Source: Chrysomallon squamiferum (taxonomy: Eukaryota; Animalia; Mollusca). From it: a DNA stretch of 64,000 nt. The DNA is taken from NCBI GenBank assembly GCA_012295275.1, contig CM022670.1:8370001-8434000 (forward strand), written 5' to 3'. Below are positions 22,330-54,694 of this stretch, piece after piece (position 1 is the first letter of the stretch; every line of letters begins with the position of its first letter). The notes under the pieces were generated by a model. The model made no database searches, was not told the DNA's origin, and worked only from the letters and a program-made list of their open reading frames with translations. The translations under genes and the position numbers were made by a program.

Positions 22330-25300
22330 CGTACAAACTGTAACTAAAACAAAGATTTAAAAGTAAGAAACAAAAAAACTTGGTTAACTGTAAGCAAAAA
22401 AATACATTCCACCTTTGACTGTATTGCATCTTATTCTATATACCCTAGTACTTTTTAACACCGACCTTTCAGAAAAAATATATACAAGCTGGAACGGTAA
22501 ATATCTCAATGGTAATTCGGTATGCTTTTAGATCATTTGATGTTTCATAATCTTTTTACATTAAGCATTTACTCGTCTTAAAATATATTTATTTTATTTC
22601 ATTTTTCTATTATTTTTTATTTTCTGTTTTTAAAAGTTGTAATATATATTTTATCATTAAGATTTGAAAAAGATTGAAATATAATTTTTAATATTTAAAA
22701 AAAAAAAACTAACACAGATGTTAAAGTATAGCAAACAACACATAATTAGTGTATATACATTTTGTTCTTGTTTTGTCTTCTGTTATCTTAATCTGTTGTG
22801 CCAAATGTATTTTATCTGACAAAACTTTATCCATTACTTCTTACTGTTTTATGTTAAAATGACTCATTTTATCATGTAATTTACCTGATTTTACTTTGCT
22901 TTGTGCTTTTATTATCATAATCATCATCATTATCATTTTCATACCTACCATCATCATCTATGTATTCAGTTATAATAATAATAATTAGTAGTAGTAGTAG
23001 TATATGTAGTAATATTTGTATTATTATTATTATTACTACTATTATTGATAAGGTTATAATTATTTTGTTGTTGTTACTGTTATTATAATTACATGTATTG
23101 TTATTAGTAAATATCAATAACTAAATATTAAATATCAATAAGTCATTCATTTTAAAGTGTATTATATCTAAACACTGCATTTATTTCTGACTGTATGTAC
23201 TATTATTCTTATGACAGAACCAAGCTCTACAAGAACATCAGCAACTCCAGGTATTTATTTGAAAACTATCTCTCAGTTAGACACACACACTCTCTGTCTT
23301 TCTCTCTCCTTTTCATTTCTCTTCCTCTATCACTCTCTCTCACTGTCTCTCTTTCCATCTGTTTTTCTTACACATGCAGTCTCATTGAAAGTATGCATGT
23401 CAGTGTATGTATGTATGTATGTATGTATGTATGTATCTGTATGACAAGTTTTTATTTTAAAACTATCTCTTAGTGAGAAAAATACATTAGCAACATAAAT
23501 ATGTATGACTAATTTGAAAAAAAACATTCATAGAAACTGTGGATAAAACAAAAATTTGAAAATAAGAAATAAAAGATTGATTAACTGTAAACGAACAAAT
23601 AAATTCCAAGTTTGAGTGTATTACATTTTATTCTACATACCCTAGTACATTTTAACACCGACCTTTCAGAAACAGTATATACAAGCTGGAACGGTAAATA
23701 TCTCAATGGTAATTCGGTATTCTTTTAGATCATTTGATGTTTCATAATCTATTTACATTAAGCATTTACTCGTCTTAAAATATATTTATTTTATTTCATT
23801 TTTCTATTATTTTTTATTTTCTGTTTTTAAAAGTTGTAATATATATTTTATCATTAAGATTTGAAAAAGATTGAAATATAATTTTTAATATTTAAAAAAA
23901 AAAAAACTAACATAGACGTTAAAGTACAGCAAACAACACATAATTAGTGTATATACATTTTGTTCTTGTTTTGTCTTCTGTTATCTTAATCTGTTGTGCC
24001 AAATGTATTTTATCTGACAAAACTTTATCCATTACTTCTTACTGTTTTATGTTAAAATGACTCATTTTATCATGTAATTTACCTGATTTTACTTTGCTTT
24101 GTGCTTTTATTATCATAATCATCATCATTATCATTTTCATACCTACCATCATCATCTATGTATTCAGTTATAATAATAATAATTAGTAGTAGTAGTAGTA
24201 TATGTAGTAATATTTGTATTATTATTATTATTACTACTATTATTGATAAGGTTATAATTATTTTGTTGTTGTTACTGTTATTATAATTACATGTATTGTT
24301 ATTAGTAAATATCAATAACTAAATATTAAATATCAATAAGTCATTCATTTTAAAGTGTATTATATCTAAACACTGCATTTATTTCTGACTGTATGTACTA
24401 TTATTCTTATGACAGAACCAAGCTCTACAAGAACATCAGCAACTCCAGGTATTTATTTGAAAACTATCTCTCAGTTAGACACACACACTCTCTGTCTTTC
24501 TCTCTCCTTTTCATTTCTCTTCCTCTATCACTCTCTCTCACTGTCTCTCTTTCCATCTGTTTTTCTTACACATGCAGTCTCATATTGAAAGTATGCATGT
24601 CAGTGTATGTATGTATGTATGTATGTATGTATGTATCTGTATGACAAGTTTTTATTTTAAAACTATGACTCAGTGAGAAAAATACATTAGCAACATAAAT
24701 AGGTATGACTAATTTGAAAAAAACATTCATAGAAACTGTGGATAAAACAAAAATTTGAAAATAAGAAATAAAAGATTGATTAACTGTAAACGAACAAATA
24801 AATTCCAAGTTTGAGTGTATTACATTTTATTCTACATACCCTAGTACATTTTAACACCGACCTTTCAGAAACAGTATATACAAGCTGGTACGGTAAATAT
24901 CTCAATGGTAATTCGGTATTCTTTTAGATCATTTGATGTTTCATAATCTTTTTACATTAAGCATTTACTCGTCTTAAAATATATTTATTTTATTTCATTT
25001 TTCTATTATTTTTTATTTTCTGTTTTTAAAAGTTGTAATATATATTTTATCATTAAGATTTGAAAAAGATTGAAATATAATTTTTAATATTTAAAAAAAA
25101 AAAAACTAACACAGATGTTAAAGTATAGCAAACAACACATAATTAGTGTATATACATTTTGTTCTTGTTTTGTCTTCTGTTATCTTAATCTGTTGTGCCA
25201 AATGTATTTTATCTGACAAAACTTTATCCATTACTTCTTACTGTTTTATGTTAAAATGACTCATTTTATCATGTAATTTACCTGATTTTACTTTTGCTTT

Positions 25301-27940
25301 TGTGCTTTTATTATCATAATCATCATCATTATCATTTTCATACCTACCATCATCATCTATGTATTCAGTTATAATAATAATAATTAGTAGTAGTAGTAGT
25401 ATATGTAGTAATATTTGTATTATTATTATTATTACTACTATTATTGATAAGGTTATAATTATTTTGTTGTTGTTACTGTTATTATAATTACATGTATTGT
25501 TATTAGTAAATATCAATAACTAAATATTAAATATCAATAAGTCATTCATTTTAAAGTGTATTATATCTAAACACTGCATTTATTTCTGACTGTATGTACT
25601 ATTATTCTTATGACAGAACCAAGCTCTACAAGAACATCAGCAACTCCAGGTATTTATTTGAAAACTATCTCTCAGTTAGACACACACACTCTCTGTCTTT
25701 CTCTCTCCTTTTCATTTCTCTTCCTCTATCACTCTCTCTCACTGTCTCTCTTTCCATCTGTTTTTCTTACACATGCAGTCTCATATTGAAAGTATGCATG
25801 TCAGTGTATGTATGTATGTATGTATGTATGTATCTGTATGACAAGTTTTTATTTTAAAACTATGACTCAGTGAGAAAAATACATTAGCAACATAAATAGG
25901 TATGACTAATTTGAAAAAAACATTCATAGAAACTGTGGATAAAACAAAAATTTGAAAATAAGAAATAAAAGATTGATTAACTGTAAACGAACAAATAAAT
26001 TCCAATAAAATATATTTAATTTTATTTTACTTTGCTTTGTGCTTTTATTATCATAATCATCATCATTATCATTTTCATACCTACCATCATCATCTATGTA
26101 TTCAGTTATAATAATAATAATTAGTAGTAGTAGTAGTATATGTAGTAATATTTGTATTATTATTATTATTACTACTATTATTGATAAGGTTATAATTATT
26201 TTGTTGTTGTTACTGTTATTATAATTACATGTATTGTTATTAGTAAATATCAATAACTAAATATTAAATATCAATAAGTCATTCATTTTAAAGTGTATTA
26301 TATCTAAACACTGCATTTATTTCTGACTGTATGTACTATTATTCTTATGACAGAACCAAGCTCTACAAGAACATCAGCAACTCCAGGTATTTATTTGAAA
26401 ACTATCTCTCAGTTAGACACACACACTCTCTGTCTTTCTCTCTCCTTTTCATTTCTCTTCCTCTATCACTCTCTCTCTCTCACTGTCTCTCTTTCCATCT
26501 GTTTTTCTTACACATGCAGTCTCATTGAAAGTATGCATGTCAGTGTATGTATGTATGTATGTATGTATGTATCTGTATGACAAGTTTTTATTTTAAAACT
26601 ATCTCTTAGTGAGAAAAATACATTAGCAACATAAATATGTATGACTAATTTGAAAAAAAACATTCATAGAAACTGTGGATAAAACAAAAATTTGAAAATA
26701 AGAAATAAAAGATTGATTAACTGTAAACGAACAAATAAATTCCAAGTTTGAGTGTATTACATTTTATTCTACATACCCTAGTACATTTTAACACCGACCT
26801 TTCAGAAACAGTATATACAAGCTGGAACGGTAAATATCTCAATGGTAATTCGGTATTCTTTTAGATCATTTGATGTTTCATAATCTTTTTACATTAAGCA
26901 TTTACTCGTCTTAAAATATATTTATTTTATTTCATTTTTCTATTATTTTTTATTTTCTGTTTTTAAAAGTTGTAATATATATTTTATCATTAAGATTTGA
27001 AAAAGATTGAATAATATTTTTTAATATTTAAAAAAACAAAAACTAACATAGACGTTAAAGTGCAGCAAACAACACATAATTAGTGTATATACATTTTGTT
27101 CTTGTTTTGTCTTCTGTTATCTTAATCTGTTGTGCCAAATGTATTTTATCTGACAAAACTTTATCCATTACTTCTTACTGTTTTATGTTAAAATGACTCA
27201 TTTTATCATGTAATTTACCTGATTTTACTTTGTTTTGTGCTTTTATTATCATAATCATCATCATTATCATTTTCTACCTACCATCATCATCTATGTATTC
27301 AGTTATAATAATAATAATTAGTAGTAGTAGTAGTATATGTAATAATATTTATTATTATTATTATTATTACTATTATTGATAAGGTTATAATTATTTTGTT
27401 GTTGTTACTGTTATTATAATTACATGTATTGTTATTAGTAAATATCAATAACTAAATATTAAATATCAATAAGTCATTCATTTTAAAGTGTATTATATCT
27501 AAACACTGCATTTATTTCTGACTGTATGTACTATTATTCTTTGACAGAACCAAGCTCTACAAGAACATCAGCAACTCCAGGTATTTCTTTTTGAAAACTA
27601 TCTCTCAGTTAGACACACACACTCTCTGTCTTTTTCTCTCCTTTTCATTTCTCTTCCTCTATAACTCTCTCTCACTGTCTCTCTTTCCATTTTTTTCTTA
27701 AACATGCAGTCTCATTGAAAGTATGCATGTCAGTGTATGTATGTATGTATGTATGTATGTATGTATCTGTATGACAAGTTTTTTTTATTTTAAAACTATC
27801 TCTTAGTGAGAAAAATACATTAGCAACATAAATATGTATGACTAATTTGAAAAAAAACATTCATAGAAACTGTGGATAAAACAAAAATTTGAAAATAAGA
27901 AATAAAAGATTGATTAACTGTAAACAGAACAAATAAATTG
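22330..27940 (+). repeat. Tandem array 1: ~1.2 kb/0.74 kb units carrying five 33-nt micro-exons (23218, 24416, 25617, 26354, 27548) encoding EPSSTRTSATP
   Basis: tgacag|AACCAAGCTCTACAAGAACATCAGCAACTCCAG|gtattt in every unit. Spacings 1198, 1201, 737, 1194. Confidence 0.9.
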
Positions 27941-28468: not shown

Positions 28469-28501
28469 AACTAACTACTACAACGACAACAGCCACTCCA
28501 A
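28469..28501 (+). CDS. 33-nt Thr-rich micro-exon (ELTTTTTTATP); copies at 37896, 50174 and 54662
   Basis: tttttacag|AACTAACTACTACAACGACAACAGCCACTCCAA|gtattt, phase 1-1. Flanks are paralogous to the EPSS-exon flanks. Confidence 0.75.
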
Positions 28502-28946: not shown

Positions 28947-30125
28947 CTACTCGATGCATGGGAACGTATTGTTCAGTTTTTATATCTGAGTGGAGCCAAA
29001 TTTGTCAACGGATACTGTGTTTGTACAAAAACTGGATACAACTACTATACGTGCCTACTCAATGCACTATATATAACTAAATATATCTATTCAGAAACGA
29101 TCAGGTTCACACACAAACATACAGATACACATACATACCCACATATACATATACACATGCACATACTCAGGCCTGCAAACACAAATATACAGATGCACAT
29201 GCACATAAACACACAGACACATTCACACAGACTGAGTCAGAGGCAATATTTGTAACAGGGAAATACTCGAATCGATAAAGTAAAGGAACATAGTTGAAAT
29301 ATTTTAAAATTATTTTTTACACTGATTATGCTGGTTGTTTAGTACAAAGAAACAAAGGAAACCAGGGCTGTTCCATCTTACCACGGCAGAAAGCGATCGT
29401 CTGTGTATGGTTGTATCAACAAAAGCAGTCTGAATCTGTCGCCCGAAGTTCATGTATTTGGATGCTATGAGAACATCAATCGAAGGCCACCTAAAGCTGG
29501 GAATACAACTGTGGACATTGTGGGACACACAACCAAACCTGTTGTTCTGGTTTTGACCTCTTATGAACCTGTAGCCTGGATGATTAATGTTGCTGGAATG
29601 ATTATCCAGAAAATCATGCCATAAAATTTCTCTAATTTTAAGAAAGCTTGTGTAGAATTTTTGGAATCTCATCACTTTGTAATAGTATGTGTTATATATA
29701 TATAGCCTACACATTACGGTGTAGAGTCATTTTATCAGTTAGCAATAGCGTATATTTATATATAACTTTTGATAAAGTAGACTGATAAAGCGTTTTTGGA
29801 CTGCTAAGTAAAATGGGAAGTAACTTGATGTCTGTATGTGTTTGTATGCAGTATGTATGTGCATATTTAAAACTTTATATGTTAAAATCAAAATGAAATT
29901 GTTTTTGCTTTCTTGCAGTATTCTTACTATCTGGATAAGAGTTCTGTAGTGGTGGATCAAACCCTCCAGTTGAGAAAAGCAGAAAGAGTGTTTATGGATA
30001 TTTAAAGTGACAGCGGAGGTCACACGCTCAAGTTACTGGCTGAAGTCAAGAAACTCTTTGGTCATGTGACTTCCTTTTCTGGAACCTACAAAGTTGACCA
30101 CTGGTCACTCACGGTGGGCATCTAG
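28947..30125 (+). pseudogene. Damaged copy (or assembly-error copy) of the EGF-like and SYEPV-domain exons, cassette 1
   Basis: Compared with 38400-39585: donor lost after TGCCTAC (29058), AG acceptor lost (~29320), donor lost at ~29620, small deletions at ~29590 and ~29948. Confidence 0.7.
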
Positions 30126-30419: not shown

Positions 30420-31394
30420 TAAGAAAAAGCCGAGGAAAGTTGATCACTAATTTTTATTCTCCAGTTTTCCTCCAAGGTTAATGGCAACATGGTTAATAAC
30501 TATACGGGAAATGATAGAGAGGAGAGGTGTTGGCCATGTAATCTTGAGACTTTTATCGTGTCAACTACAGCGATTCTGAGGCCTGCTTGTTCTTCTATCT
30601 TCCTTTTTTCGTTCTAGAGAAGCTATTTTTTATTTGTTTCTTGACCGGGGTGCTTGTCAGAACTTCTTAGGCCTACCCTTCCCAAATCCTTCCTTGTTTA
30701 TTCGTGCCTTTCGAAAATAATTTATCTCCTCTGGATTGACGATGATCGACTTTATATTTGAAGTTGATGAGACTGGTTCGAATGTTGCTGATGTTCCTGT
30801 AGCTGCATTTGGGGCTGGATTTGTTATATCTAGTTCATGTGATTGATGCATTTCGTGTTGTTTTCGGTCTGTCGCAGAGGAAAAAAGGAGGACCTCATCA
30901 CCTAACGCATTAGGAAGGAGTATAAAACACCTTTGTTCTTGAAAGCAGCTGTGATGTTCATGGAAGTGAAGGAAAGTGTGTAAGCACTGCCTATAATCTT
31001 GCAAAAGTTATGCACCGTTCCCTACATGCACTTTATACAAGCATGTGACCTTCTAAAATGGCGGACTGAAGACTAAAGAGCAGATATTGATAATCTTCAC
31101 AAAAAATACCTCTAATCGAAACATAATGAATAGTTTCATAGTCTTTGATGATCCATACTATATCACAAACAAATATTAGTCCTAAAAATTTACTTTTGAT
31201 GGTTGAAAAGCAAACTTTACCTTGCTAATTTTCCAAATACAAGCCTCGGTTAAAACAAAACAAATTTCTTCACTGAGGATTCACCATAGATTTTTAATGA
31301 TGTCATCACTTCGGGATCCAATTTATTTTTCATTATCTATAAATGCTCATTGATCCACAGTGCTCCATGTTCCACTGTGCCCCGACTCCCCCTA
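30420..31394 (-). mobile_element. Degenerate pogo/Tc1-mariner-type DNA transposon fragment; copies at ~39880-40851 and ~52140-53088
   Basis: Minus-strand peptide IIGSAYTLSFTSMNI(T/A)A(A/G)FKNKGV..PNAFGD..SSATDR resembles the region just C-terminal of DDE_1 transposases. TIR-like end TAGGGGGAGTCGGGGCACAGTGG on the minus strand. Confidence 0.6.
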
Positions 31395-31507
31395 GTACAC
31401 ACACATATATATATACTTCACACATACACATTCGCATAAAGATATACACACATACAAATATATATATACATATTCGCATCTAACTGAATATATTTTAATA
31501 CTTACAG

Positions 31508-31523
31508 GTGAATAACAACAATG
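31508..31523 (+). CDS. 16-nt VNNNN micro-exon, cassette 2
   Basis: cttacag|GTGAATAACAACAATG|gtaagt. Confidence 0.65.
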
Positions 31524-31699
31524 GTAAGTTTCTACTTAATTACTTAACTTCAGTTAGAGAAACCAAAACATGGTTATTAAATAGATTTGACATTATCATA
31601 ACTGTTATCTCAGTAATTTATGTTAAACGTATTATCACGTTATCTTATCTTACCTTATCTTTCTCTTATCTTCTCTTATCTTAATCTATTGTGTATAAT

Positions 31700-34600
31700 A
31701 TATATTATGTGACAAAACTTTATCCATTACTTCTTACTGTTTTATGTTAAAATGACTCAGTTTATCATGTAATTTACCTTATTTTACTCTGCTTTGTGCT
31801 TTTATTATTTTATTGTTGTTACTGTTATTATAATTACATGTATTGTTATTAGTAAATATCAATAACTAAATATTAGATATCAATAAGTCATTCATTTTAA
31901 AGTGTATTATATCTAAACACTGCATTTATTTCTGACTGTATGTACTATTATTCTTATGACAGAACCAAGTTCTACAACAACATCAGCAACTCCAGGTATT
32001 TATTTGAAAACTATCTCTCAGTTAGACACACACACTCTCTGTCTTTCTCTCTCCTTTTTATTTCTCTTACTCTCTCACTCTCTCTCACTGTCTCTCTTTC
32101 CATCTGTTTTTCTTACACATGCAGTCTCACATTGAAAGTATGCGTGTCAGTGTATGTATGTATGTATGAATGTATGTATCTGTATGACAAGATTTTCTTT
32201 TAAAACTATCTCTTTGGTGAGACAAATACATTGGGAACATCAATGGGTATAACTAATTTAAAAAAAAAAAAAACATTCATAGAAATTGTGGATAAAACAA
32301 AGATTTGAAAATAAGAAACAAAAGATTGATTAACTGTATAAAACAAATAAATTCCAAGTTTGAGTGTATTACATCTTATTCTATATACCCTAGTACTTTT
32401 TAACACCGACCTTTCAGAAACAACATATACAAGCTGGAACAGTAAAATATCTCAATGGTAATTCGGTATGCTTTTAGATCATTTGATGTTTCATAATCCT
32501 TTTACATTAAGCATTTACTCGTCTTAAAATATATTTATTTTATTTCATTTTTCTATTATTTTTTTATTTTCTGTTTTTAAAAGTTGTAATATATATTTTA
32601 CCATTAAGATTTGAAAAGATTGAATAGTATTTTTAATATTTAAAAAAAAAAAAAACTAACACAGACATTAAAGTACAGCAAACAACACATAATTAGTGTA
32701 TATACGTTTTGTTCTTGTTTTGTCTTCTGTTATCTTAATCTGTTGTGCCAAATGTATTTTATCTGACAAAACTTTATCCATTCCTTCTTACTGTTTTATG
32801 TTAAAATGACTCATTTTATCATGTAATTTATTTTATTTTACTTTGCTAAGTGCTTTTATTATCATAATCATCATCATTATCATGTTCATTCCTATCATCA
32901 TCATCTATGTATTCAGTTATAATAATAATAATTAGTAGTAGTAGTAGTATATGTAGTAATATTTGTTGTATTATTATTATTACTACTATTATTGATAAGG
33001 TTATAATTATTTTGTTGTTGTTACTGTTATTATAATTACATGTATTGTTATTAGTAAATATCAATAACTAAATATTAAATATCAATAAGTCATTCATTTT
33101 AAAGTGTATTATATCTAAACACTGCATTTATTTCTGACTGTATGTACTATTATTCTTATGACAGAACCAAGCTCTACAAGAACATCAGCAACTCCAGGTA
33201 TTTATTTGAAAACTATCTCTCAGTTAGACACACACACATTCTCTGTCTTTTCTCTCTCCTTTTATTTCTCTTCCTTTCTCACTCTCTCTCACTGTCTCTC
33301 TTTCCATCTGTTTTTTTACACATGCAGTCTCATATTGAAAGTATGCATGTCAGTGTATGTATGTATGTATGTATGTATGTATCTGTATGACAAGTTTTTA
33401 TTTTAAAACTATGACTCAGTGAGAAAAATACATTAGCAACATAAATAGGTATGACTAATTAAAAAAAAAACATTCATAGAAACTGTGGATAAAACAAAAA
33501 TTTGAAAATAAGAAATAAAAGATTGATTAACTGTAAACGAACAAATAAATTCCAAGTTTGAGTGTATTACATCTTATTCTACATACCCTAGTACATTTTA
33601 ACACCGACCTTTCAGAAACAGTATATACAAGCGGGAACGGTAAATATCTCAATGGTAATTCGGTATTCTTTTAGATCATTTGATGTTTCATAATCTTTTT
33701 ACATTAAGCATTTACTCGTCTTAAAATATATTTATTTTATTTCATTTTTCTATTATTTTTTATTTTCTGTTTTTAAAAGTTGTAATATATATTTTATCAT
33801 TAAGATTTGAAAAAGATTGAAATATAATTTTTAATATTTAAAAAAAAAAAACTAACACAGACGTTAAAAGTACAGCAAACAACACATAATTAGTGTATAT
33901 ACATTTAGTTCTTGTTTTGTCTTCTGTTATCTTAATCTGTTGTGCCAAATGTATTTTATCTGACAAAACTTTATCCATTACTTCTTACTGTTTTATGTTA
34001 AAATGACTCATTTTATCATGTAATTTACCTGATTTTACTTTGCTTTGTGCTTTTATTATCATAATCATCATCATTATCATTTTCATACCTACTATCATCA
34101 TCTGTGTATTCAGTTATAATAATAATAATTAGTAGTAGTAGTAATATATGTAGTAATATTTGTATTATTATTATTATTACTACTATTATTGATAAGGTTA
34201 TAATTATTTTGTTGTTGTTACTGTTATTATAATTACATGTATTGTTATTAGTAAATATCAATAACTAAATATTAAATATCAATAAGTCATTCATTTTAAA
34301 GTGTATTATATCTAAACACTGCATTTATTTCTGACTGTATGTACTATTATTCTTATGACAGAACCAAGCTCTACAAGAACATCAGCAACTCCAGGTATTT
34401 ATTTGAAAACTATCTCTCAGTTAGACACACACACTCTCTGTCTTTCTCTCTCCTTTTTATTTCTCTTACTCTCTCACTCTCTCTCACTGTCTCTCTTTCC
34501 ATCTGTTTTTCTTAAACATGCAGTCTCATATTGAAAGTATGCATGTCAGTGTATGTATGTATGTATGAATGAAGGTATCCCTATGACAAGTTTTTATTTT

Positions 34601-36420: not shown

Positions 36421-36595
36421 AAAGAATATGAGACAAAAAGATTTGTGACAGCGATTTCTTAATTCATGTTCAATTATTTATTAACAAATATATAAAATAT
36501 TTCACATTACAACAAAACATACGTTTTGTAAACAAATAGAAATTTTTCACATGATACCGAAGAAATGATTGAAACAATCATTTATTTTATTTCAG

Positions 36596-40964: not shown

Positions 40965-40980
40965 GTGAATAACAACAATG
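40965..40980 (+). CDS. 16-nt VNNNN micro-exon, cassette 3
   Basis: cttacag|GTGAATAACAACAATG|gtaagt. Confidence 0.65.
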
Positions 40981-41159
40981 GTAAGTTTCTACTTAATTAC
41001 TTAACTTCAGTTAGAGAAACCAAAACATGGTTATTAAATAGATTTGACATTATCATAACTGTTATCTCAGTAATTTATGTTAAACGTATTATCACGTTAT
41101 CTTATCTTACCTTATCTTTCTCTTATCTTCTCTTATCTTAATCTATTGTGTATAATATA

Positions 41160-44100
41160 TATTATGTGACAAAACTTTATCCATTACTTCTTACTGTTTT
41201 ATGTTAAAATGACTCAGTTTATCATGTAATTTACCTTATTTTACTCTGCTTTGTGCTTTTATTATTTTATTGTTGTTACTGTTATTATAATTACATGTAT
41301 TGTTATTAGTAAATATCAATAACTAAATATTAGATATCAATAAGTCATTCATTTTAAAGTGTATTATATCTAAACACTGCATTTATTTCTGACTGTATGT
41401 ACTATTATTCTTATGACAGAACCAAGTTCTACAACAACATCAGCAACTCCAGGTATTTATTTGAAAACTATCTCTCAGTTAGACACACACACTCTCTGTC
41501 TTTCTCTCTCCTTTTTATTTCTCTTACTCTCTCACTCTCTCTCACTGTCTCTCTTTCCATCTGTTTTTCTTACACATGCAGTCTCACATTGAAAGTATGC
41601 GTGTCAGTGTATGTATGTATGTATGAATGTATGTATCTGTATGACAAGATTTTCTTTTAAAACTATCTCTTTGGTGAGACAAATACATTGGGAACATCAA
41701 TGGGTATAACTAATTTAAAAAAAAAAAAAACATTCATAGAAATTGTGGATAAAACAAAGATTTGAAAATAAGAAACAAAAGATTGATTAACTGTATAAAA
41801 CAAATAAATTCCAAGTTTGAGTGTATTACATCTTATTCTATATACCCTAGTACTTTTTAACACCGACCTTTCAGAAACAACATATACAAGCTGGAACAGT
41901 AAAATATCTCAATGGTAATTCGGTATGCTTTTAGATCATTTGATGTTTCATAATCCTTTTACATTAAGCATTTACTCGTCTTAAAATATATTTATTTTAT
42001 TTCATTTTTCTATTATTTTTTATTTTCTGTTTTTAAAAGTTGTAATATATATTTTACCATTAAGATTTGAAAAAGATTGAATAGTATTTTTTAATATTTA
42101 AAAAAAAAAAAAACTAACACAGACATTAAAGTACAGCAAACAACACATAATTAGTGTATATACGTTTTGTTCTTGTTTTGTCTTCTGTTATCTTAATCTG
42201 TTGTGCCAAATGTATTTTATCTGACAAAACTTTATCCATTCCTTCTTACTGTTTTATGTTAAAATGACTCATTTTATCATGTAATTTACCTTATTTTACT
42301 TTTGCTAAGTGCTTTTATTATCATAATCATCATCATTATCATTTTCATTCCTATCATCATCATCTATGTATTCAGTTATAATAATAATAATTAGTAGTAG
42401 TAGTAGTATATGTAGTAATATTTGTATTATTATTATTATTACTACTATTATTGATAAGGTTATAATTATTTTGTTGTTGTTACTGTTATTATAATTACAT
42501 GTATTGTTATTAGTAAATATCAATAACTAAATATTAAATATCAATAAGTCATTCATTTTAAAGTGTATTATATCTAAACACTGCATTTATTTCTGACTGT
42601 ATGTACTATTATTCTTATGACAGAACCAAGCTCTACAAGAACATCAGCAACTCCAGGTATTTATTTGAAAACTATCTCTCAGTTAGACACACACACTCTC
42701 TGTCTTTCTCTCTCCTTTTCATTTCTCTTCCTCTATCACTCTCTCTCACTGTCTCTCTTTCCATCTGTTTTTCTTACACATGCAGTCTCATATTGAAAGT
42801 ATGCATGTCAGTGTATGTATGTATGTATGTATGTATGTATCTGTATGACAAGTTTTTATTTTAAAACTATCTCTTAGTGAGAAAAATACATTAGCAACAT
42901 AAATATGTATGACTAATTTGAAAAAAAACATTCATAGAAACTGTGGATAAAACAAAAATTTGAAAATAAGAAATAAAAGATTGATTAACTGTAAACGAAC
43001 AAATAAATTCCAAGTTTGAGTGTATTACATTTTATTCTACATACCCTAGTACATTTTAACACCGACCTTTCAGAAACAGTATATACAAGCTGGAACGGTA
43101 AATATCTCAATGGTAATTCGGTATTCTTTTAGATCATTTGATGTTTCATAATCTTTTTTTACATTAAGCATTTACTCGTCTTAAAATATATTTATTTTAT
43201 TTCATTTTTCTATTATTTTTTATTTTCTGTTTTTAAAAGTTGTAATATATATTTTATCATTAAGATTTGAAAAAGATTGAAATATAATTTTTAATATTTA
43301 AAAAAAAAAAAACTAACACAGATGTTAAAGTATAGCAAACAACACATAATTAGTGTATATACATTTTGTTCTTGTTTTGTCTTCTGTTATCTTAATCTGT
43401 TGTGCCAAATGTATTTTATCTGACAAAACTTTATCCATTACTTCTTACTGTTTTATGTTAAAATGACTCATTTTATCATGTAATTTACCTGATTTTACTT
43501 TGCTTTGTGCTTTTATTATCATAATCATCATCATTATCATTTTCATACCTACCATCATCATCTATGTATTCAGTTATAATAATAATAATTAGTAGTAGTA
43601 GTAGTATATGTAGTAATATTTGTATTATTATTATTATTACTACTATTATTGATAAGGTTATAATTATTTTGTTGTTGTTACTGTTATTATAATTACATGT
43701 ATTGTTATTAGTAAATATCAATAACTAAATATTAAATATCAATAAGTCATTCATTTTAAAGTGTATTATATCTAAACACTGCATTTATTTCTGACTGTAT
43801 GTACTATTATTCTTATGACAGAACCAAGCTCTACAAGAACATCAGCAACTCCAGGTATTTATTTGAAAACTATCTCTCAGTTAGACACACACACTCTCTG
43901 TCTTTATCTCTCCTTTTTATTTCTCTTCTTTTCTCACTCTCTCTCACTGTCTCTCTTTCCATCTGTTTTTCTTACACATGCAGTCTCATATTGAAAGTAT
44001 GCATGTCAGTGTATGTATGTATGTATGTATGTATGTATGTATCTGTATGACAAGTTTTTATTTTAAAACTATCTCTTAGTGAGAAAAATACATTAGCAAC

Positions 44101-47100
44101 ATAAATATGTATGACTAATTTGAAAAAAAAAAAAACATTCATAGAAACTGTGGATAAAACAAAAATTTGAAAATAAGAAATAAAAGATTGATTAACTGTA
44201 AACGAACAAATAAATTCCAATAAAATATATTTAATTTTATTTTACCTTGCTTTGTGCTTTTATTATCATAATCATCATCATTATCATTTTCATACCTACC
44301 ATCATCATCTATGTATTCAGTTATAATAATAATAATTAGTAGTAGTAGTAATATATGTAGTAATATTTGTATTATTATTATTATTACTACTATTATTGAT
44401 AAGGTTATAATTATTTTGTTGTTGTTACTGTTATTATAATTACATGTATTGTTATTAGTAAATATCAATAACTAAATATTAAATATCAATAAGTCATTCA
44501 TTTTAAAGTGTATTATATCTAAACACTGCATTTATTTCTGACTGTATGTACTATTATTCTTATGACAGAACCAAGTTCTACAACAGCATCAGCAATTCCA
44601 GGTATTTATTTGAAAACTATCTCTCAGTTAGACACACACACTCTCTGTCTTTATCTCTCCTTTTTCGTTCTCTTCCTTTCTAACTCTCTCTCACTGTCTC
44701 TCTTTCCATCTGTTTTTCTTAAACATGCAGTCTCATATTGAAAGTATGCATGTCAGTGTATGTATGTATGTATGAATGTGTGTATCGCTATGACAAGTTT
44801 TTATTTTAAAACTATCTCTTAGTGAGAAAAATACATTAGCAACATAAATATGTATGACTAATTTGAAAAAAAACATTCATAGAAACTGTGGATAAAACAA
44901 AAATTTGAAAATAAGAAATAAAAGATTGATTAACTGTAAACGAACAAATAAATTCCAATAAAATATATTTAATTTTATTTTACTTTGCTTTGTGCTTTTA
45001 TTATCATAATCATCATCATTATCATTTTCATACCTACCATCATCATCTATGTATTCAGTTATAATAATAATAATTAGTAGTAGTAGTAGTATATGTAGTA
45101 ATATTTGTATTATTATTATTATTACTACTATTATTGATAAGGTTATAATTATTTTGTTGTTGTTACTGTTATTATAATTACATGTATTGTTATTAGTAAA
45201 TATCAATAACTAAATATTAAATATCAATAAGTCATTCATTTTAAAGTGTATTATATCTAAACACTGCATTTATTTCTGACTGTATGTACTATTATTCTTA
45301 TGACAGAACCAAGCTCTACAAGAACATCAGCAACTCCAGGTATTTATTTGAAAACTATCTCTCAGTTAGACACACACACTCTCTGTCTTTCTCTCTCCTT
45401 TTATTTCTCTTCCTTTATCACTCTCTCTCACTGTCTCTCTTTCCATCTGTTTTTCTTAAACATGCAGTCTCATATTGAAAGTATGCATGTCAGTGTATGT
45501 ATGTATGTATGAATGTATGTATCCCTATGACAAGTTTTTATTTTAAAACTATCTCTTAGTGAGAAAAATACATTAGCAACATAAATATGTATGACTAATT
45601 TGAAAAAAAACATTCATAGAAACTGTGGATAAAACAAAAATTTGAAAATAAGAAATAAAAGATTGATTAACTGTAAACGAACAAATAAATTCCAATAAAA
45701 TATATTTAATTTTATTTTACCTTTGCTTTGTGCTTTTATTATCATAATCATCATCATTATCATTTTCATACCTACCATCATCATCTATGTATTCAGTTAT
45801 AATAATAATAATTAGTAGTAGTAGTAGTACATGTAGTAATATTTGTATTATTATTATTATTACTACTATTATTGATAAGGTTATAATTATTTTGTTGTTG
45901 TTACTGTTATTATAATTACATGTATGTTTATTAGTAAATATCAATAAGTCATTCATTTTAAAGTGTATTATATCTAAACACTGCATTTATTTCTGACTGT
46001 TTGTACTATTATTCTTATGACAGAACCAAGTTCTACAAGGACATCAGAAACTCCAGGTATTTATTTGAAAACTATCTCTCAGTTAGACACACACACTCTC
46101 TGTCTTTCTCTCTCTTTTTTATTTCTCTTCCTTTATCACTCTCTCTCTTTTCATCTGTTTTTCTTACACATGCAGTCTCATATTGACAGTATGCATGTCA
46201 GTGTATGTATGTATGTATGTATGTATCTGTATGACAAGTTTTTATTTTAAAACTATGTCTCAGTGAGGAAAATACATTAGCAACATAAATATGTATGACT
46301 AATTTGAAAAAAACATTCATAGAAACTGTGGATAAAACAAAAATTTGAAAATAAGAAATAAAAGATTGATTAACTGTAAACGAACAAATAAATTCCAATA
46401 AAATATATTTATTTTATTTCATTTTTTATTATTTTTTTATTTTCTGTTTTTAAAAAAAATATATATTTTGTTTTGTTTTGACTTCTGTTATCTTAATCTG
46501 TTGTGCCAAATGTATTTTAATTTGAAAAAACTTTATCCAGAAACTGTGGATCAAAAATTTGAAAATGTTTTATGTTAAAATGAACAAATCATTTAAAATA
46601 TGTAATTTTTTATTTTACTTTGCTTTGTGCTTTTATTATCATAATCATCATCATTATCATGTTCATTCCTATCATCATCATCTATGTATTCAGTTATAAT
46701 AATAAAAATTAGTAGTAGTAGTATTATATGCATTATTATTATTATTGATAAGGTTATAATTATTTTGTTGTTGTTACTGTTATTATAATTACATGTATTG
46801 TTATTAGTAAATATCAATAACTAAATATAAAATATCAATAAGTCATTCATTTTAAAGTGTATTATATCTAAACACTGCATTTATTTCTGACTGTATGTAC
46901 TATTATTCTTATGACAGAACCAAGTTCTACAAGGACATCAGAAACTCCAGGTATTTATTTGAAAACTATCTCTCAGTTAGACACACACACTCTCTGTCTT
47001 TCTCTCTCCTTTTTATTTCTCTTCCTCTATCACTCTCTCTCACTGTCTCTCTTTCCGTCTGTTTTTCTTACACATGCAGTCTCATATTGAAAGTATGCAT

Positions 47101-48710
47101 GTCAGTGTATGTATGTATATATGTATGTATCTGTATGACAAGTTTTTATTTTAAAACTATGACTCAGTGAGAAAAATACATTAGCAACATAAATAGGTAT
47201 GACTAATTTGAAAAAAACATTCATAGAAACTGTGGATAAAACAAAAATTTGAAAATAAGAAATAAAAGATTGATTAACTGTAAACGAACAAATAAATTCC
47301 AAGTTTGAGTGTATTACATCTTATTCTACATACCCTAGTACATTTTAACACCGACCTTTCAGAAACAATATATACAAGCTGGAACGGTAAATATTTCAAT
47401 GGTAATTCGGTATTCTTTTAGATCATTTGATGTTTCATAATCTTTTTATATTAAGCATTTACTCGTCTTAAAATATATTTATTTTATTTCATTTTTCTAT
47501 TATTTTTTATTTTCTGTTTTTAAAAGTTGTAATATATATTTTATCATTAAGATTTGAAAAAGATTGAAATATAATTTTTAATATTTAAAAAAAAAAAAAA
47601 ACTAACACAGACGTTAAAGTACAGCAAACAACACATAATTAGTGTATATACATTTTGTTCTTGTTTTGTCTTCTGTTATCTTAATCTGTTGTGCCAAATG
47701 TATTTTATCTGACAAAACTTTATCCATTACTTCTTACTGTTTTATGTTAAAATGACTCATTTTATCATGTAATTTACCTGATTTTACTTTGCTTTGTGCT
47801 TTTATTATAATAATCATCATCATTATCATTTTCATACCTACCATCATCATCTATGTATTCAGTTATAATAATAATAATTAGTAGTAGTAGTATATGTAGT
47901 AATATTTGTATTATTATTATTATTACTACTATTATTGATAAGGTTATAATTATTTTGTTGTTGTTACTGTTATTATAATTACATGTATTGTTATTAGTAA
48001 ATATCAATAACTAAATATTAAATATCAATAAGTCATTCATTTTAAAGTGTATTATATCTAAACACTGCATTTATTTCTGACTGTTTGTACTATTATTCTT
48101 ATGACAGAACCAAGTTCTACAAGAACATCAGAAACTCCAGGTATTTATTTGAAAACTATCTCTCAGTTAGACACACACACTCTCTGTCTTTCTCTCTCCT
48201 TTTTATTTCTCTTCCTCTATCACTCTCTCTCACTGTCTCTCTTTCCGTCTGTTTTTCTTACACATGCAGTCTCATATTGAAAGTATGCGTTTCAGTGTAT
48301 GTATATATGTATGAGAAGATTTTCTTTTAAAACTATCTCTCTGTGAGACAAATACATTAGCAACATCAATGGGTATGACTAATTTGAAAAAAAAAAACAT
48401 TCATAGAAATTGTGGATAAAACAAAGATTTGAAAATAAGAAACAAAAGATTGATTACCCGTATAACACAAATCAATTCCAAGTTTGAGTGTATAACATCT
48501 TATTCTATATACCCTAGTACTTTTTAACACCGGCCTTTCATAAATAATACATAGCGTTTATATGGGAAATATCTCAGTGTTAATTCCGTATGCTTTGTAT
48601 GATCATATGACGTCTTTAATAATCTTTTTCTGTTAAGTATTTGGTCGTGTTAAAATATGTTTATTTTATTTCATTTCATTGTATTATTATTCTATTTTCT
48701 GTTTTGAAAA
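41160..48710 (+). repeat. Tandem array 3 with eight 33-nt micro-exons (41420, 42624, 43822, 44569, 45307, 46024, 46918, 48108)
   Basis: Same unit. Variants EPSSTTTSATP, EPSSTRTSATP, EPSSTTASAIP and EPSSTRTSETP all keep 33 nt and AG/GT. Confidence 0.9.
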
Positions 48711-48883
48711 AGAATATGAGACAAAAAGATTTGTGACAGCGATTTCTTAATTCATGTTCAATTATTTATTAACAAATAAATAAAATATTTCACATTACAA
48801 CAAAACATACGTTTTGTAAACAAATAGAAATTTTTCACATGATACCGAAGAAATGATTGAAACAATCATTTATTTTATTTCAG

Positions 48884-49670
48884 TGACAAACTGTCTGAAT
48901 TCAAAAGACTGCTGGGTGCAGCACAATTTTCAGTTTGATGATAACTGGAACGATTGTCATGGAGAACAATACGTGAGAAAAACCACTTACGAATTTGGGA
49001 AATATGTTGGAGTAGTTCTGTGTTCATCTACCAGGTATTCATGTGTATCTCTCTAAATCTGTCTCAATCTCGATGTCTCTTGGCTATGACATACATACAC
49101 AAACGTACACGCACACATGTGCAGATCCAATATTCTGACCACTACAGTTGTATTTTGCAGATATAAGCTGTTTTTGTCTGATTCGCTCAGTGACCGTTTT
49201 CTCAACATCGGAGACGGCAGTGGACATGGTCAGGATCATTGTGAGTTTATAGGAAGCAAAAATGATGCAACTTCTATAGACAGGAATTTCTGGAATTCGC
49301 CAGGAACTACAGGTCAGACTTTCTTTAAAAAAAAACATTTTAAGAGGCACATTTCCTTTAGAAACCTTTCTTAAATTGTTACAAATTGACTGAAAACAGT
49401 AAAACAGAATTATTTTAAAGGGTGTCTGCAATTTATATTTTGGTCTAAACCGAGATTTATTGATCACAACATATGATAAATGTAATTCTGATTCAGTTAT
49501 TTATATCGTTTTAGGATACATACGATCAAGGCGTGGTGAAACGCCTGCCAAGGGCAGAATTGGGGGAGGCACGGGATCCTCGTGGACTGGAAATTATTAT
49601 GGAAAATGGATAGAATGTGGAGTCAGGATTCCAGGAAACAGCAGAGTGGTATTATTGTCTGGTACAAAAG
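48884..49670 (+). CDS. TARSH C-terminal-like domain, copy 3 (exons 48884-49034, 49161-49312, 49515-49670)
   Basis: Same lengths and phases as copies 1 and 2; open frame. Confidence 0.85.
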
Positions 49671-50396
49671 GTAATTCGTCTTTTCTTAAACCGTCTTGTT
49701 TCTAACATCGATTTTTCATAAAGAATATATACAAGCTGGAATGGGAAATATCTCAAAAGTAATTCGGTATGCTTTTATATTAAACATTTGTTCGACATAA
49801 AACATATTTATGTTATTTAAGTTCATTCTATGTTATTTAAGTTCATTCGGTTTTTAAAAGTTGTAATATATATTTTATAATTAAGATTTGAAAAAGATCG
49901 AAATATATATATATATATATTTTAATTAACACAAATACTGAAGTACAGCAAACTACACGTAAGTAGCATGTGTAAATTTTCTTCTTTTATTTCTTGCATC
50001 TATTGTTCTTGTTGTTCTTCTTCTTCCTCTCCTTGTTCTTGTTGTTCTTATTATTATTATTGTTCATAATGTTATTATTATTATTAAATATTAATACATG
50101 ATAAATTAAATGCAGAATTCTATTTGAAGACTGTATTTATTTCTGACTGTGTTTACATTTATTCTTTTTACAGAACTAACTACTACAACGACAACAGCCA
50201 CTCCAAGTATTTATTTTAAAACTATCTCTCTGTGAGCCAAGAATTCTCTGTCTCTGTCGCCGTTGTCTCTTTATTCCTCTTTCTCACTCTATCACGCTGT
50301 CTCCCGCCCTGAGTCTCTCTCTTTCTCTTTCTCTACACGCACATCCAATCACATATGTATGTATATTAATGTATATATGTGTGAGATAACTATACT

Positions 50397-50488
<92 letters not shown>

Positions 50489-50655
50489 GTCTGTATGACA
50501 GCATGCATACATGTAGGTGTACATGCATGTACGTTTGTATGTATGTATGAATTTTGTTTATAAGTATGTGTGTATATGTGTTTCTATGTGTACGTATGTA
50601 TGTAAATATGTAGATGTATATTTTGTTTCTAAACATTTATTATAATCATTTAAAG

Positions 50656-51848
50656 CTACTCGATGCATGGGAACGTATTGTTCCGGTTCGTATACGAGTG
50701 GAGCCAAATGTGTCAACGGATACTGTGTTTGTACAAACTGGATGGATACAACTACTATACGTGCCTACGTAAGCACTATATATAACTAAATATATCTATT
50801 CAGAAACGATCAGGTTCACACACAAACATACAGATACACATACATACCCACATATACATATACACACATGCACATACTCAGGCCTGCAAACACAAATATA
50901 CAGATGCACATGCACATAAACACACAGACACATTCACACAGACTGAGTCAGAGGCAATATTTGTAACGGGAAATACTCCGAATCGATAAAGTAAAGGAAC
51001 ATAGTTGAAATATTTTAAAATTATTTTTACAGCTGATTATGCTGGTTGTTTAGTACAAAGAAACAAGGAAACCAGGGCTGTTCCATCTTACCACGGCAGA
51101 AAGCGATCGTCTGTGTATGGTTGTATCAACAAAAGCAGTCTGAATCTGTCGCCCGAAGTTCATGTACTTGGATGCTATGAGAACATCAATCGAAGGCCAC
51201 CTAAAGCTGGGAATACAACTGTGGACATTGTGGGACACACAACCAAACCTGTTGTTCTGGTTTTGACCTCTTATGAACCTGTAGCCTGGAGGATTAATGT
51301 GCCTGCTGGAATGATTATCCAGAAAATCATGCTGGTAAAATTTCTCTAATTTTAAGAAAGCTTGTGTAGAATTTTTGGAATCTCATCACTTTGTAATAGT
51401 ATGTGTTATATATATATAGCCTACACATTACGGTGTAGAGTCATTTTATCGGTTAGCAATAGCGTATATATATATATATATAACTTTTGATAAAGTAGAC
51501 TGATAAAGCGTTTTTGGACTGCTAGGTAAAATGGGAAGTAACTTGATGTCTGTATGTGTTTGTATGCAGTATGTATGTGCATATTTAAAACTTTATATGT
51601 TAAAATCAAAATGAAATTGTTTTGCTTTCTTGCAGTATTCTTACTATCTGGATAAGAGTTCTGTAAGCGTGAGTGGTGGATCAAACCCTCCAGTTGAGAC
51701 AAGCAGAAAGAGTGTTTATGGATATGGTAGTGACAGCGGAGGTCACACGCTCAAGTTACTGGCTGAAGTCAAGAAACGCTTTGGTCATGTGACTTCCTTT
51801 TCTGGAACCTACAAAGTTGACCACTGGTCACTCACGGTGGGCATCTAG
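50656..51848 (+). CDS. Cassette 3 EGF-like exon (50656-50768, +2 nt frameshift) and SYEPV domain type A exons (51033-51334, 51636-51836/51848)
   Basis: Near-identical to 38400-39585. The EGF exon is 113 nt instead of 111 (ACAAACTGGATGGATAC vs ACAAAAACTGGATAC). Confidence 0.7.
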
Positions 51849-53199
51849 CTTATCATTTGACTGTGCAAATAAATATTTTAATCAGGGTAAGAACCATGAG
51901 ATCATCTGGAATCCAGTGTTTCTTATCTATAACGGCTCCTAGTAAACACCACTCTCTATTAATCGCCCAAAACATGTTTGTCTTCCTGCGCCAATGCGTT
52001 CCCTAATATTGTCTATGTACAGAGTCTAATCAGACATATATAAGAAAGAGAATATTCAAATCCTAAAATACATACATACATGAACACATACACACATATA
52101 ATCATTAACACATATAGACATACATACATAAGTACTTAGCTAAGGAAAGCCGAGACACCGTTGATCACTAATTTTTATTCTCCAGTTTTCCTCCAAGGTT
52201 AATGGCAACATGGTTAATAACTATACGGGAAATGATAGAGACGAGAGGTGTTGGCCATGTAATCTTGAGACTTTTATCGTGTCAACTACAGCGATTCTGA
52301 GGCCTGCTTGTTCTTCTATCTTCCTTTTTCGTTCTAGAGAAGCTATTTTTATTTGTTTCTTGACCGGGGTGCTTGTCAGAACTTCTTAGGCCTACCCTTC
52401 CTAAATCCTTCCTTGTTTATTCGTGCCTTTCGAAAATAATTGACGATGATCGACTTTATATTTGAAGTGAATGAGACTGGTTCGAATGTTGCTGATGTTC
52501 CTGTAGCTGCATTTGGGGCTCGATTTGGCATATCTGGTTCATGTGACTGATGCATTTCGTGTTGTTTTCGGTCTGTCGCAGAGGAAAAAAGGAGGACCCC
52601 ATCACCAAATGCATTAGGAAGGAGTAGATAAACACCTTTGTTCTTGAAACCAGCTGCGATGTTCATGGAAGTGAAGGAAAGTGTGTAAGCACTGCCTATA
52701 ATCTTGCAAAAATCATCGAAATTCCCTACATGCGCTTCATACAAGCAGGTGAGCTTATGCAAATGGCGGTCTGAGGACCAAAGAGGAGATATTGATAATC
52801 TTCACAAAAACTACCTCTAATCGAAACATAATGAATAGTTTCTTATTCCTTGATGATCCATACTATATCACAAACAAATATTAGTCCTAAAAATGTACTT
52901 TTGATGGTTGAAAAGAAAACTTTACCTTGCTAATTTTCAAAATGGAAGCCTCGGTTAAAACAAAACAGATTTCTTCACTGATGATTCACCATGATGATAT
53001 CACTTCGGGATTCCTTTTTTTTTTCATTATCTATAAATAGTCACAGATCCACAGTGCTCCATGTTCCACAGTGCCCCGACTCACACTAGTACACACATAT
53101 ATATACTTCACACATACACATTCGCATAAAGATATACACACATACAAATATATATATATACATATTCGCATCTAACTGAATATATTTTAATATTTACAG

Positions 53200-54694
53200 G
53201 TGAATAACAACAATGGTAAGTTTCTACTTAATTACTTAACTTCAGATAGAGAAACCAAAACATGATTATTGAATAGATTTGTCATTATCATGACTATTAT
53301 CTCAGTATCTTATGCTAAACGTATTATGACGTTATCTTATATTACCTTATCTTTCTCTTATCTTCTCTTCTCTTAATCTATTGTGTCAAATGTATTTTAT
53401 TTGACCAAACTTTATCCATTACTTCTTACTGTTTAATGTTAAAATGACTCATCTTATCATGTAATTTACATTATTTTACTTTGCTTTGTGCTTTTATTAT
53501 CATAATCATCATCATTATCATGTTCGTACCTACTATCATCATCTATGTATTCAGTTATAATAATAATAATTAGTAGTAGTAGTAGTATATGTATTATTAT
53601 TATTATTATTATTAATATTATTGATACGGTTATAAATATTTTGTTGTTGTTACTGTTATTATAATTACATGTATTGTTATTAGTAAATATCAATAACTAA
53701 ATATTAAATATCAATAAGTCATTCATTTTAAAGTGTATTATATCTAAACACTGCATTTATTTCTGACTGTATGTACTATTATTCTTATGACAGAACCAAG
53801 TTCTACAAGGACATCAGAAACTCCAGGTATTTATTTGAAAACTATCTCTCAGTTAGACACACACACTCTCTGTCTTTATCTTTCCTTTTTATCTCTCTTA
53901 CTCTCTCACTCTCCCTCACTGTCTCTCTTTCCATCTGTTTTTCTTACACATGCAGTCTCATATTGAAAGTATGCATGTCAGTGTATGTATGTATGTATGA
54001 ATGTATGTATCCCTATGACAAGTTTTTATTTTAAAACTATCTCTCTGTGAGACAAATACATTAGCAACCTCAATGGGTCGTACTAATTTGAAAAAAACAT
54101 TCATAGAAACTGTGGATATTACAAAGATTTGAAAATAAGAAACAAAAGATTGATTACCTGTATAACACAAATCAATTTCAAGTTTGAGTATATAACATCT
54201 TATTCTATATACGCTAGTACTTTTTAACACCGGCCTTTCATAAATAATACATAGCGTTTATATGGGAAATATCTCAGTGGTAATTCCGTATGCTTTGTAT
54301 GTTCATATGACGTCGTCAATAATCTTTTTCTGTTAAGTATTTGGTCGTGTTAAAATATGTTTATTTTATTTCATTTCATTGTATTATTATTCTATTTTCT
54401 GTTTTGAAAAGTTGTAATAAATATTATATCTTTAACATTTGATAATGATCGAACTATAAATTTTAATTTTTCTTATTTTAATTAACACAGATGCTGAAGC
54501 CCAGCAATAATGTTTGATTTCTTGCATGTTTTGTTGTTGTTTTTTATTATAATTATTGACAATGTTATTATTATTATTAAATATTAATACATAATACACT
54601 GTAAACTGAATTTGAAGGCTGTATTTATTTCTGACTATATTTAGATTTATTCTTTTTACAGAACTAACTACTACAACGACAACAGCCACTTCAA
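53200..54694 (+). CDS. Cassette 4 micro-exons: VNNNN (53200-53215), EPSSTRTSETP (53794-53826), ELTTTTTTATS (54662-54694)
   Basis: Canonical AG/GT, lengths 16/33/33, compatible phases. Confidence 0.7.

Follow-up and report, generated by a model that had tools for sequence, protein, structure and literature searches.

Each 11-residue repeat of the frog mucin FIM-B.1 is encoded by one small cassette exon. In the SmPoMuc genes of Schistosoma mansoni, units of ~1 kb carrying one 27-bp exon apiece are repeated in up to ~20 copies, with homogenised introns (>93–94% alike) and divergent exon types; copy variation is ascribed to unequal crossing-over and gene conversion, the clusters are described as difficult to assemble and as containing truncated or probably pseudogenic genes, and the family is presented as specific to S. 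mansoni (PMC2576457). In chicken Muc13 every repeat has an exon to itself, and its length is proposed to be controlled by splicing and recombination (PMC1552070); the mucin domain of Xenopus tropicalis Otogl/MucXS is spread over many exons (PMC5789918) and Xenopus laevis FIM-C.1 is described as highly polymorphic via alternative splicing (PMC7177656). Here we describe a locus of the mollusc Chrysomallon squamiferum, contained in a stretch of 64,000 nucleotides (assembly GCA_012295275.1, contig CM022670.1, positions 8,370,001–8,434,000 of the forward strand; hereafter the window, numbered from its first letter), in which satellite-like repeats are read as tandem copies of one intron and one in-frame 33-nt exon, some of them spliced to one another and adding 11-residue Pro/Thr/Ser (P/T/S) repeats to a protein linker; we give this reading a probability of roughly 0.8. 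Judged by architecture, the closest precedents appear to be Schistosoma SmPoMuc and chicken Muc13, and the exon-per-repeat design is already known; the locus works like SmPoMuc, Muc13, Otogl and FIM-C.1 but lies outside all of their families.

The units, near-identical and placed ~1.2 or ~0.74 kb apart, span 22.3–54.7 kb of the window, which is AT-rich animal DNA with numerous microsatellites. A scan of the entire window with ≤13 mismatches returned 43 rows, including 19 exons of the EPSS type in groups of 5, 5, 8 and 1, exactly as an initial annotation of this DNA had counted them, and four of an ELT type; the same annotation gave all four of the latter as ELTTTTTTATP, of which the number stands and the reading of the last copy, ending in ...ATS, does not. 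The remaining 20 of the 43 rows are simple-repeat or unrelated matches without AG/GT. Every one of the 23 33-mers keeps its 33 nt, phase 1, a 5′ AG and a 3′ GT, as had been claimed, and has a CTGAC branch-point-like motif at −30/−31. Spacing inside the arrays is 1190–1204 or 717–747 nt, with a single case of 894 nt, and 2.8–4.5% of each unit is coding, a slightly wider range than the ~3–4% first estimated; tandem ~1-kb units with one small in-frame exon each, the architecture of SmPoMuc, are thus present here. P/T/S residues make up 8 of the 11 positions per repeat (S/T 6–7 of 11), giving the P/T/S-rich region that is a mucin trait, but one of just 55–88 aa per array. P/T/S-rich segments of the form AG-33 nt-GT number 22 on the + strand of 22330–54694 (a 23rd is cut at the end of the region), 0 on its − strand and 0 in the rest of the window, and 100 block shuffles gave a mean of 0.02 and a maximum of 1; since the copies are duplicates, this control is weak, amounting to roughly two independent cases, and the proper test comes from RNA. 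A 24-nt exon motif had 0 matches in JGI metagenomes.

Four sequencing runs contain the locus: X1, X2 and X3 are RNA from one study, and X4 covers introns as DNA would. All four consist of contigs, not raw reads, and the RNA contigs were compared over 16900–23380. A 180-nt X1 contig (depth 2.94) follows the last exon of a glycine-rich (Gly-rich) domain for its first 92 letters and stops exactly at the donor at 22307; it continues with 30 letters equal to the start of an ETP-variant exon, copies of which lie at 46024, 46918 and 53794, and then with the 33-mer at 23218, letters 23215–23217 being common to the exon end and the acceptor. Two X3 contigs run past 23250 into a different 33-mer variant, and the junction word has 0 occurrences on either strand of the window. 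The 33-mers are exons, as initially annotated: in RNA contigs they are spliced to the Gly-rich exon and, in three contigs of X1 and X3, to one another. The contrary outcome envisaged at the outset, transcripts that never include the 33-mers, did not occur. X2 covers the 33-mer exon bin, with no junction among the rows listed, and the splice from exon 1 to exon 2 of the upstream TARSH_C domain is found in all three RNA runs. The X3 variant is absent from all window copies, the nearest of which differs by 2 mismatches; because it is missing from the window, other haplotypes exist and, to judge from these letters, array content probably differs between individuals.

Inclusion of an exon would lengthen a linker between folded domains by one 11-residue Pro/Thr/Ser repeat; this linker is probably O-glycosylated and would act as a spacer or stalk for TARSH_C, Gly-rich and betaglycan-orphan-like domains, the copy number of the repeat having probably changed mainly by unequal crossing-over. 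The locus places RNA-supported coding exons inside DNA that repeat masking would label satellite, and in regions of this kind the linker will probably be absent from gene models or cut short in them. With this locus, the exon-per-repeat design reaches the linker of an uncharacterised modular family of marine invertebrates with a betaglycan-orphan-like fold, and for specialists in mucins or splicing it is a good example rather than a surprise. Copies differ by single diagnostic letters, the variant exons being those at 31963, 41420, 44569, 46024, 46918, 48108 and 53794, which makes the proposal that splicing as well as recombination sets repeat length, put forward for Muc13 (PMC1552070), directly testable within one individual.

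The likeness to SmPoMuc lies in architecture (~1-kb units with a small exon, 27 bp there and 33 here, and an intron) and does not imply homology: in SmPoMuc the repeats make up the N-terminal part of a family confined to the parasite, whereas those described here are short arrays that serve as linkers between domains shared with other marine invertebrates. Transcript-level repeat variation and glycosylation are demonstrated for SmPoMuc (PMC2576457) and are putative here. Pro/Thr/Ser repeats are likewise distributed over exons in Muc13, singly, and in Otogl, across many exons, but both are mucins of vertebrates that carry SEA or VWD-type domains, and the Muc13 repeat has 20 aa, against 11 aa here. 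Neither SEA nor VWD domains gave a Pfam match in 12 exon translations of the locus, nor in two related Gigantopelta aegis proteins, P0001 and P0003. FIM-B.1 and FIM-C.1 are frog gel-forming mucins with TFF or VWD modules, that is, with unrelated domains.

Several observations weigh against our reading. Among the rows listed, which leave aside 16 joints, 287 loose ends and 1620 pieces, junctions of the small exons come from two of the three RNA runs, in three contigs of one study; the RNA libraries also contain unspliced intron pieces, and contigs cannot tell the number or identity of the copies used, so that joins within the first array are not assignable to individual copies. Conservation of the 33-mer does not exceed that of the intron behind it (Fisher p 1.0), and the 33-mer varies more than the 155 nt in front of it (6/33 versus 6/176 variable columns, p 0.005), with a residue altered at 4 of its 6 variable sites. 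Mean pairwise distances are 0.049 within the exon, 0.047 over the 330 nt that follow it and 0.006 over the 155 nt that precede it; the stronger homogenisation of introns than of exons that marks SmPoMuc is thus seen on the upstream side and not on the downstream side. These values do not support the earlier claim that the intron drifts while the exon is kept, and since 124 of 614 intronic windows of 37 columns (20%) are gap-free, in an alignment that includes non-homologous flank in the first copies of the second and third arrays, indel-free exons alone are insufficient as proof of selection. The summed X4 depth over the repeat unit is 48–419, compared with ~95–240 in single-copy bins, and the window holds 6–15 exact copies per repeat word, far above that depth ratio. 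Some of the downstream modules are broken: the terminal module of unit 1 has 6 indels in 639 exon nt and 29 in 3199 non-coding nt, and the EGF-like exon of unit 3 is frameshifted. The equal decay of exon and non-coding DNA in unit 1 would fit either pseudogenisation or a local consensus error.

The host gene, modelled from splice sites and reading frames, comprises four cassettes behind one signal-peptide-like exon, 16964–17023, the only such exon upstream of all four (Table 1). Its splice sites and those of the short VNNNN exon are predicted, and neither exon was seen among the RNA rows listed, where missing cover is no evidence against them. In units 2 and 3 the order is VNNNN, array, TARSH_C, ELT-type exon, EGF-like exon, orphan-like domain and stop; most module borders are in phase 1 and exon phases are consistent throughout. 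The three TARSH_C exons match PF21731 with E-values of 5.9e-14, 1.7e-14 and 0.0027, the third under the curated cut-off. A model isoform across arrays A and B reads 903 aa with no stop, small exons account for 14–16% of the coding sequence in two model isoforms, and the encoded protein is likely to be modular and secreted. In unit 4 the degenerate orphan-like last exon is read in another frame, which yields a short hydrophobic tail and a stop. This new end has 27 aa, is partly out of the ancestral frame and finishes in a hydrophobic segment (mean hydropathy up to 2.35); the tail could be accidental or resemble a glycosylphosphatidylinositol (GPI) signal. A second signal-peptide-like exon at 63493–63552, 45% identical to the first, of equal length and also with a phase-0 donor, is probably the start of a paralogue extending beyond the window.

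Table 1. Positions of the repeat exons and of the modules of the host gene in the window.
Feature	Position	Strand	Remarks
First coding exon, signal-peptide-like	16964–17023	+	20 aa, hydrophobic by inspection; phase-0 donor
VNNNN exon, copy 1	19384–19399	+	16 nt, phase 0 to 1; predicted from splice sites
VNNNN exon, copies 2, 3, 4	31508, 40965, 53200	+	
TARSH_C copy 1, three exons	19820–19970, 20114–20265, 20473–20628	+	Pfam PF21731
Gly-rich domain, three exons	20853–20975, 21306–21437, 21834–22307	+	Last exon spliced to 33-mer in X1
Array A, span	23218–27580	+	Five phase-1 exons
Array A, EPSS-type exons, 5 copies	23218, 24416, 25617, 26354, 27548	+	
ELT-type exons, 4 copies	28469, 37896, 50174, 54662	+	
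ELT-type exon, copy 1	28469–28501	+	
Unit-1 EGF-like + orphan-like module	28947–30125	+	Broken; donors and acceptor lost, frameshifts
VNNNN copy 2 + array B	31508–35851	+	
Array B, EPSS-type exons, 5 copies	31963, 33165, 34362, 35102, 35819	+	
Unit-2 module	36596–39585	+	Intact
Unit-2 TARSH_C	36596–37387	+	
Unit-2 ELT-type exon	37896–37928	+	
Unit-2 EGF-like exon	38400–38510	+	
Unit-2 orphan-like domain	38775–39076, 39373–39585	+	With stop
VNNNN copy 3 + array C	40965–48140	+	
Array C, EPSS-type exons, 8 copies	41420, 42624, 43822, 44569, 45307, 46024, 46918, 48108	+	
Unit-3 module	48884–51848	+	EGF-like exon with 2-nt frameshift
Unit-3 TARSH_C	48884–49670	+	
Unit-3 ELT-type exon	50174–50206	+	
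Unit-3 EGF-like exon	50656–50768	+	
Unit-3 orphan-like domain	51033–51334, 51636–51848	+	Open; with stop
Unit-4 start	53200–54694	+	VNNNN copy 4, EPSS-type and ELT-type exons
Unit-4 EPSS-type exon, single copy	53794–53826	+	
Unit-4 ELT-type exon	54662–54694	+	
Unit-4 second EGF-like exon	55486–55602	+	
Unit-4 second orphan-like domain	56934–57235, 57603–57867	+	
Deletion remnant as last exons	58166–58570	+	52-nt TARSH fragment (58166–58217) + degenerate orphan-like exon

Preservation of the reading frame shows better in the older split between EPSS and ELT types than among the EPSS copies, as far as aligned letters can tell: in the one comparison made, the exon has 0 gap positions and the flanks 10–34 per 150 nt, and the branch-point motif and splice signals are kept across the split. 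The short unit, which had been attributed to a single ~460-bp deletion, differs from the long unit in the pair compared by two deletions of 166 and 275 nt with a short stretch kept between them. EPSS units do not group by array, and unit 2 is a mosaic whose left half resembles unit 3 and whose right half resembles unit 1, as unequal crossing-over would leave; the array history fits this mechanism, which had been suggested initially. Of the 422 positions aligned between the long-unit intron and the TARSH-to-ELT intron, 328 agree, and a portion of the long-unit intron is similar as well to the end of the Gly-rich exon and to the intron downstream of that exon. The last 22 nt of the Gly-rich exon and its donor (22286–22307) align inside the intron of each repeat unit, for example at ~23481, so that either the edge of the repeat unit would fall in the Gly-rich exon or the exon end would have been recruited from the repeat. 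Because an ELT-type paralogue still lies between TARSH_C and the EGF-like module, the array would stem from the linker exon of an ancestral gene of the form TARSH, linker, EGF and orphan-like domain, resembling G. aegis P0001; entire cassettes would have been duplicated later, in blocks of 9–12 kb.

The alternative that survives best, which we nonetheless consider unlikely, accepts the exon as real and treats the majority of the 23 copies as passengers, with a single array or a few copies that matter; on this view, cassettes beginning at 31508 and beyond have no first exon of their own and are largely unexpressed duplication debris. It is favoured by the lone signal-peptide-like exon upstream of the four cassettes, with the next one lying downstream of them, by the broken unit-1 module and unit-3 EGF-like exon, and by the 19 EPSS copies, which show no sign of purifying selection; in addition, the stops at 30125 and 39585 are followed by no AATAAA for 1.5 kb and by no ATTAAA for 1.4 kb. 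Expression of the farthest cassette argues against it: in X1 and X2 the end of the unit-4 domain (57867) is joined to the TARSH fragment and onward to 58541, the latter join being seen as loose ends equal to the model over 30 letters. At TARSH position 20220, X1 and X3 RNA likewise shows the letter of units 2 and 3, although it could be a unit-1 allele, and a transcript of unit 1, whose own end is broken, would need a downstream module behind further arrays.

It is doubtful that the region is in part an assembly artefact, with ~30650–40100 and 40100–52400 representing two alleles, of 5 and 8 copies, assembled one behind the other and fewer real arrays than the window displays. Units 2 and 3 are certainly close: 30657–31995 and 40112–41452 differ by 0 substitutions in 1339 nt, other matching parts by 0.6–1.9%, and no difference separates the leading copies of arrays B and C across a 518-nt core, a near-identity that would fit a very recent duplication as well as two alleles in tandem. 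X4 depth at TARSH exon 2 is 175, compared with 95 at the Gly-rich exon, that is ~2× rather than 3×, and the depths over the repeat hint at fewer copies in that animal. Against this, a very recent unequal crossover would leave the same mosaic, contig depth is no copy number, and X4, whose intron letters depart from those of the window at many positions (by several percent in some introns), may carry another haplotype.

We regard it as quite unlikely that skipping of symmetric exons, regulated or stochastic, is the main source of variation, with a ladder of isoforms in each animal. Skipping itself would be possible, as the initial annotation had surmised, because every 33-mer is in phase 1 and no junction can create a stop, and hardly any variation occurs in the 155 nt before the exon. 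In X1, moreover, the ETP variant comes straight after the Gly-rich exon, whereas in the assembly it first occurs at 46024, 23.7 kb downstream and behind 15 other EPSS copies. This order may reflect long-range skipping or another haplotype equally well, and the haplotypes implied by the X3 variant are enough to explain it; no skipping junction occurs among the RNA rows listed, and homogenisation of introns through gene conversion is described for SmPoMuc (PMC2576457).

A bolder and rather improbable extension would make the locus a combinatorial gene with one leader, in which a single signal-peptide exon serves four cassettes, skipping and copy number together set the length of the stalk and each snail has its own set of proteins. 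If so, the leader would reach the cassettes by a choice among the four VNNNN entry exons or by read-through of phase-1 arrays past broken modules; every snail would secrete its own TARSH_C, Gly-rich and betaglycan-orphan-like set, with one form possibly membrane-tethered by the tail derived from deletion debris. The result would be a host-side counterpart of the polymorphic mucins of parasites, from an animal with RNA libraries that are classified as metatranscriptomes. Finally, plain satellite DNA whose 33-mers are never exons would agree with exons no more conserved than their flanks and is virtually untenable given exact exon–exon joins, absent from the window, in RNA contigs of two samples and splice signals kept across the EPSS/ELT split.

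The proteins closest to the host gene are two uncharacterised ones of Gigantopelta aegis, P0001 (XP_041368724, LOC121383034) and P0003 (LOC121374683), 69–75% identical per module. Both share TARSH_C (72–75%), EGF-like plus orphan-like modules (69–72%; 69% for unit 2 against P0001, 72% over 212 aa for unit 4 against P0003) and a Pro/Thr-rich linker after TARSH_C, but both are without the Gly-rich domain and their linker sequences differ from that of C. squamiferum. In P0003 the linker that separates TARSH_C from EGF has three tandem Pro/Thr/Glu repeats (residues 403–457), compared with one in P0001; unrelated in sequence to the repeat of the window, they may have expanded independently in an equivalent place. 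Coral, echinoderm, hemichordate, brachiopod, nemertean and amphioxus proteins contain these modules in shuffled arrangements, and outside Gigantopelta the identity of TARSH_C and the orphan-like domain is only ~40–60%. Two proteins, P0020 (two TARSH_C-like domains) and P0002 (orphan-like domain), have N-termini that look bacterial, and these modules may occur outside animals too. No paper on this locus or family was listed, to judge from the listings, in literature searches on Gigantopelta aegis and on micro-exons or mucins of molluscs.

The unnamed domain at the end of the cassettes has, according to the predicted structure of its G. aegis homologue (P0001 residues 356–527; predicted local distance difference test 92.7, predicted template modelling score 0.90), the fold of the betaglycan and endoglin orphan domains, which does not imply their function. 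Foldseek with this model returned, below E 0.001, only betaglycan and endoglin orphan domains (10 rows, best 4e-7), and VIA gave Z 19.1 with a root mean square deviation of 2.2 over 151 residues, the best unrelated row having Z 4.0. A profile of 92 homologues matches the betaglycan orphan domain with E 5.7e-4, and PF26060, which we take to be the TGFBR3 N-terminal family, is precomputed on four relatives, although it was missing from the matches of the local Pfam copy. P0001 as a single query had no match in the PDB, the ESM Atlas gave scores all <0.9 and TM <0.5 for the domain, and the fold family is also widespread among unrelated proteins. Betaglycan and endoglin have a ZP domain and a transmembrane anchor. 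Here, by contrast, identity to them is 17–19%, a single subdomain has an EGF-like partner, neither ZP nor fibronectin type III (FN3) domains gave a Pfam match in the 12 exon translations, and units 2 and 3 stop directly after the orphan-like domain. Pfam Toxin_2 on the EGF-like exon (22.3 and 17.6 bits, under the 25.1 cut-off) was attributed to the cysteine pattern and rejected.

The Gly-rich domain shares 71% identity with two Branchiostoma proteins (over 214 aa), and just 42–43% with its two gastropod matches (Nucella, Biomphalaria), a pattern that may reflect unusual conservation or transfer, in a search restricted to longer proteins. By features it resembles phage Gly_rich_2 clusters (score 0.93), with PF21722 on 15% of cluster members. 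Of the pattern matches to the Gly-rich exon in JGI metagenomes and IMG/VR, 0 of 600 and 0 of 602 were confirmed as relatives, tblastn of amphioxus P0167 against phages gave a match limited to its Ig region at ~25% identity, and a viral origin is unsupported beyond this feature-level lead.

Two parallels drawn in the initial annotation proved overstated. Schistosome micro-exon genes (MEGs) have most of their coding region in very small symmetrical exons behind a signal peptide (PMC4350168). Very small symmetrical exons are found here as well, after a putative signal-peptide exon, but the small exons make up a minor share of the coding sequence, as given above, and are near-identical tandem copies, so that the definition of a MEG does not apply. 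ABI3BP (TARSH), for which the initial annotation cited a small-exon Pro/Thr region, consists of FN3 domains with TARSH_C at the C-terminus. It shares TARSH_C with this locus, where two exons score above the curated cut-off, where FN3 is missing from the 12 exons and where TARSH_C is N-terminal or internal; with TARSH_C alone in common, an ABI3BP orthologue is ruled out. In one study, part of the disordered ABI3BP region 391–818 is removed by splicing (PMC6426741, PMC13518942).

Upstream of the gene, 5165–7921 holds a protocadherin-like gene, named from motifs, with one large exon encoding cadherin-type repeats and a transmembrane stretch, and with short candidate constant-region exons near 8290–8417, 8884–9001 and 10600–10650. 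A direct duplicate of ~1 kb (87%) flanks the whole gene at 9240–10158 and 60535–61504, and an inverted match (76%) lies nearby at 13664–13881 and 60096–60306; together these suggest that a larger region was duplicated too. The first intron contains, between 17100 and 19100, degenerate retroelement-like pieces with − strand open reading frames at 17471–17842, 18083–18562 and 18685–18990, whose motifs are presumably those of reverse transcriptase. Positions 18853–19069 are very high in copy number in X4 (depth ~51000), and a 98-nt piece recurs upstream of VNNNN copies 2–4.

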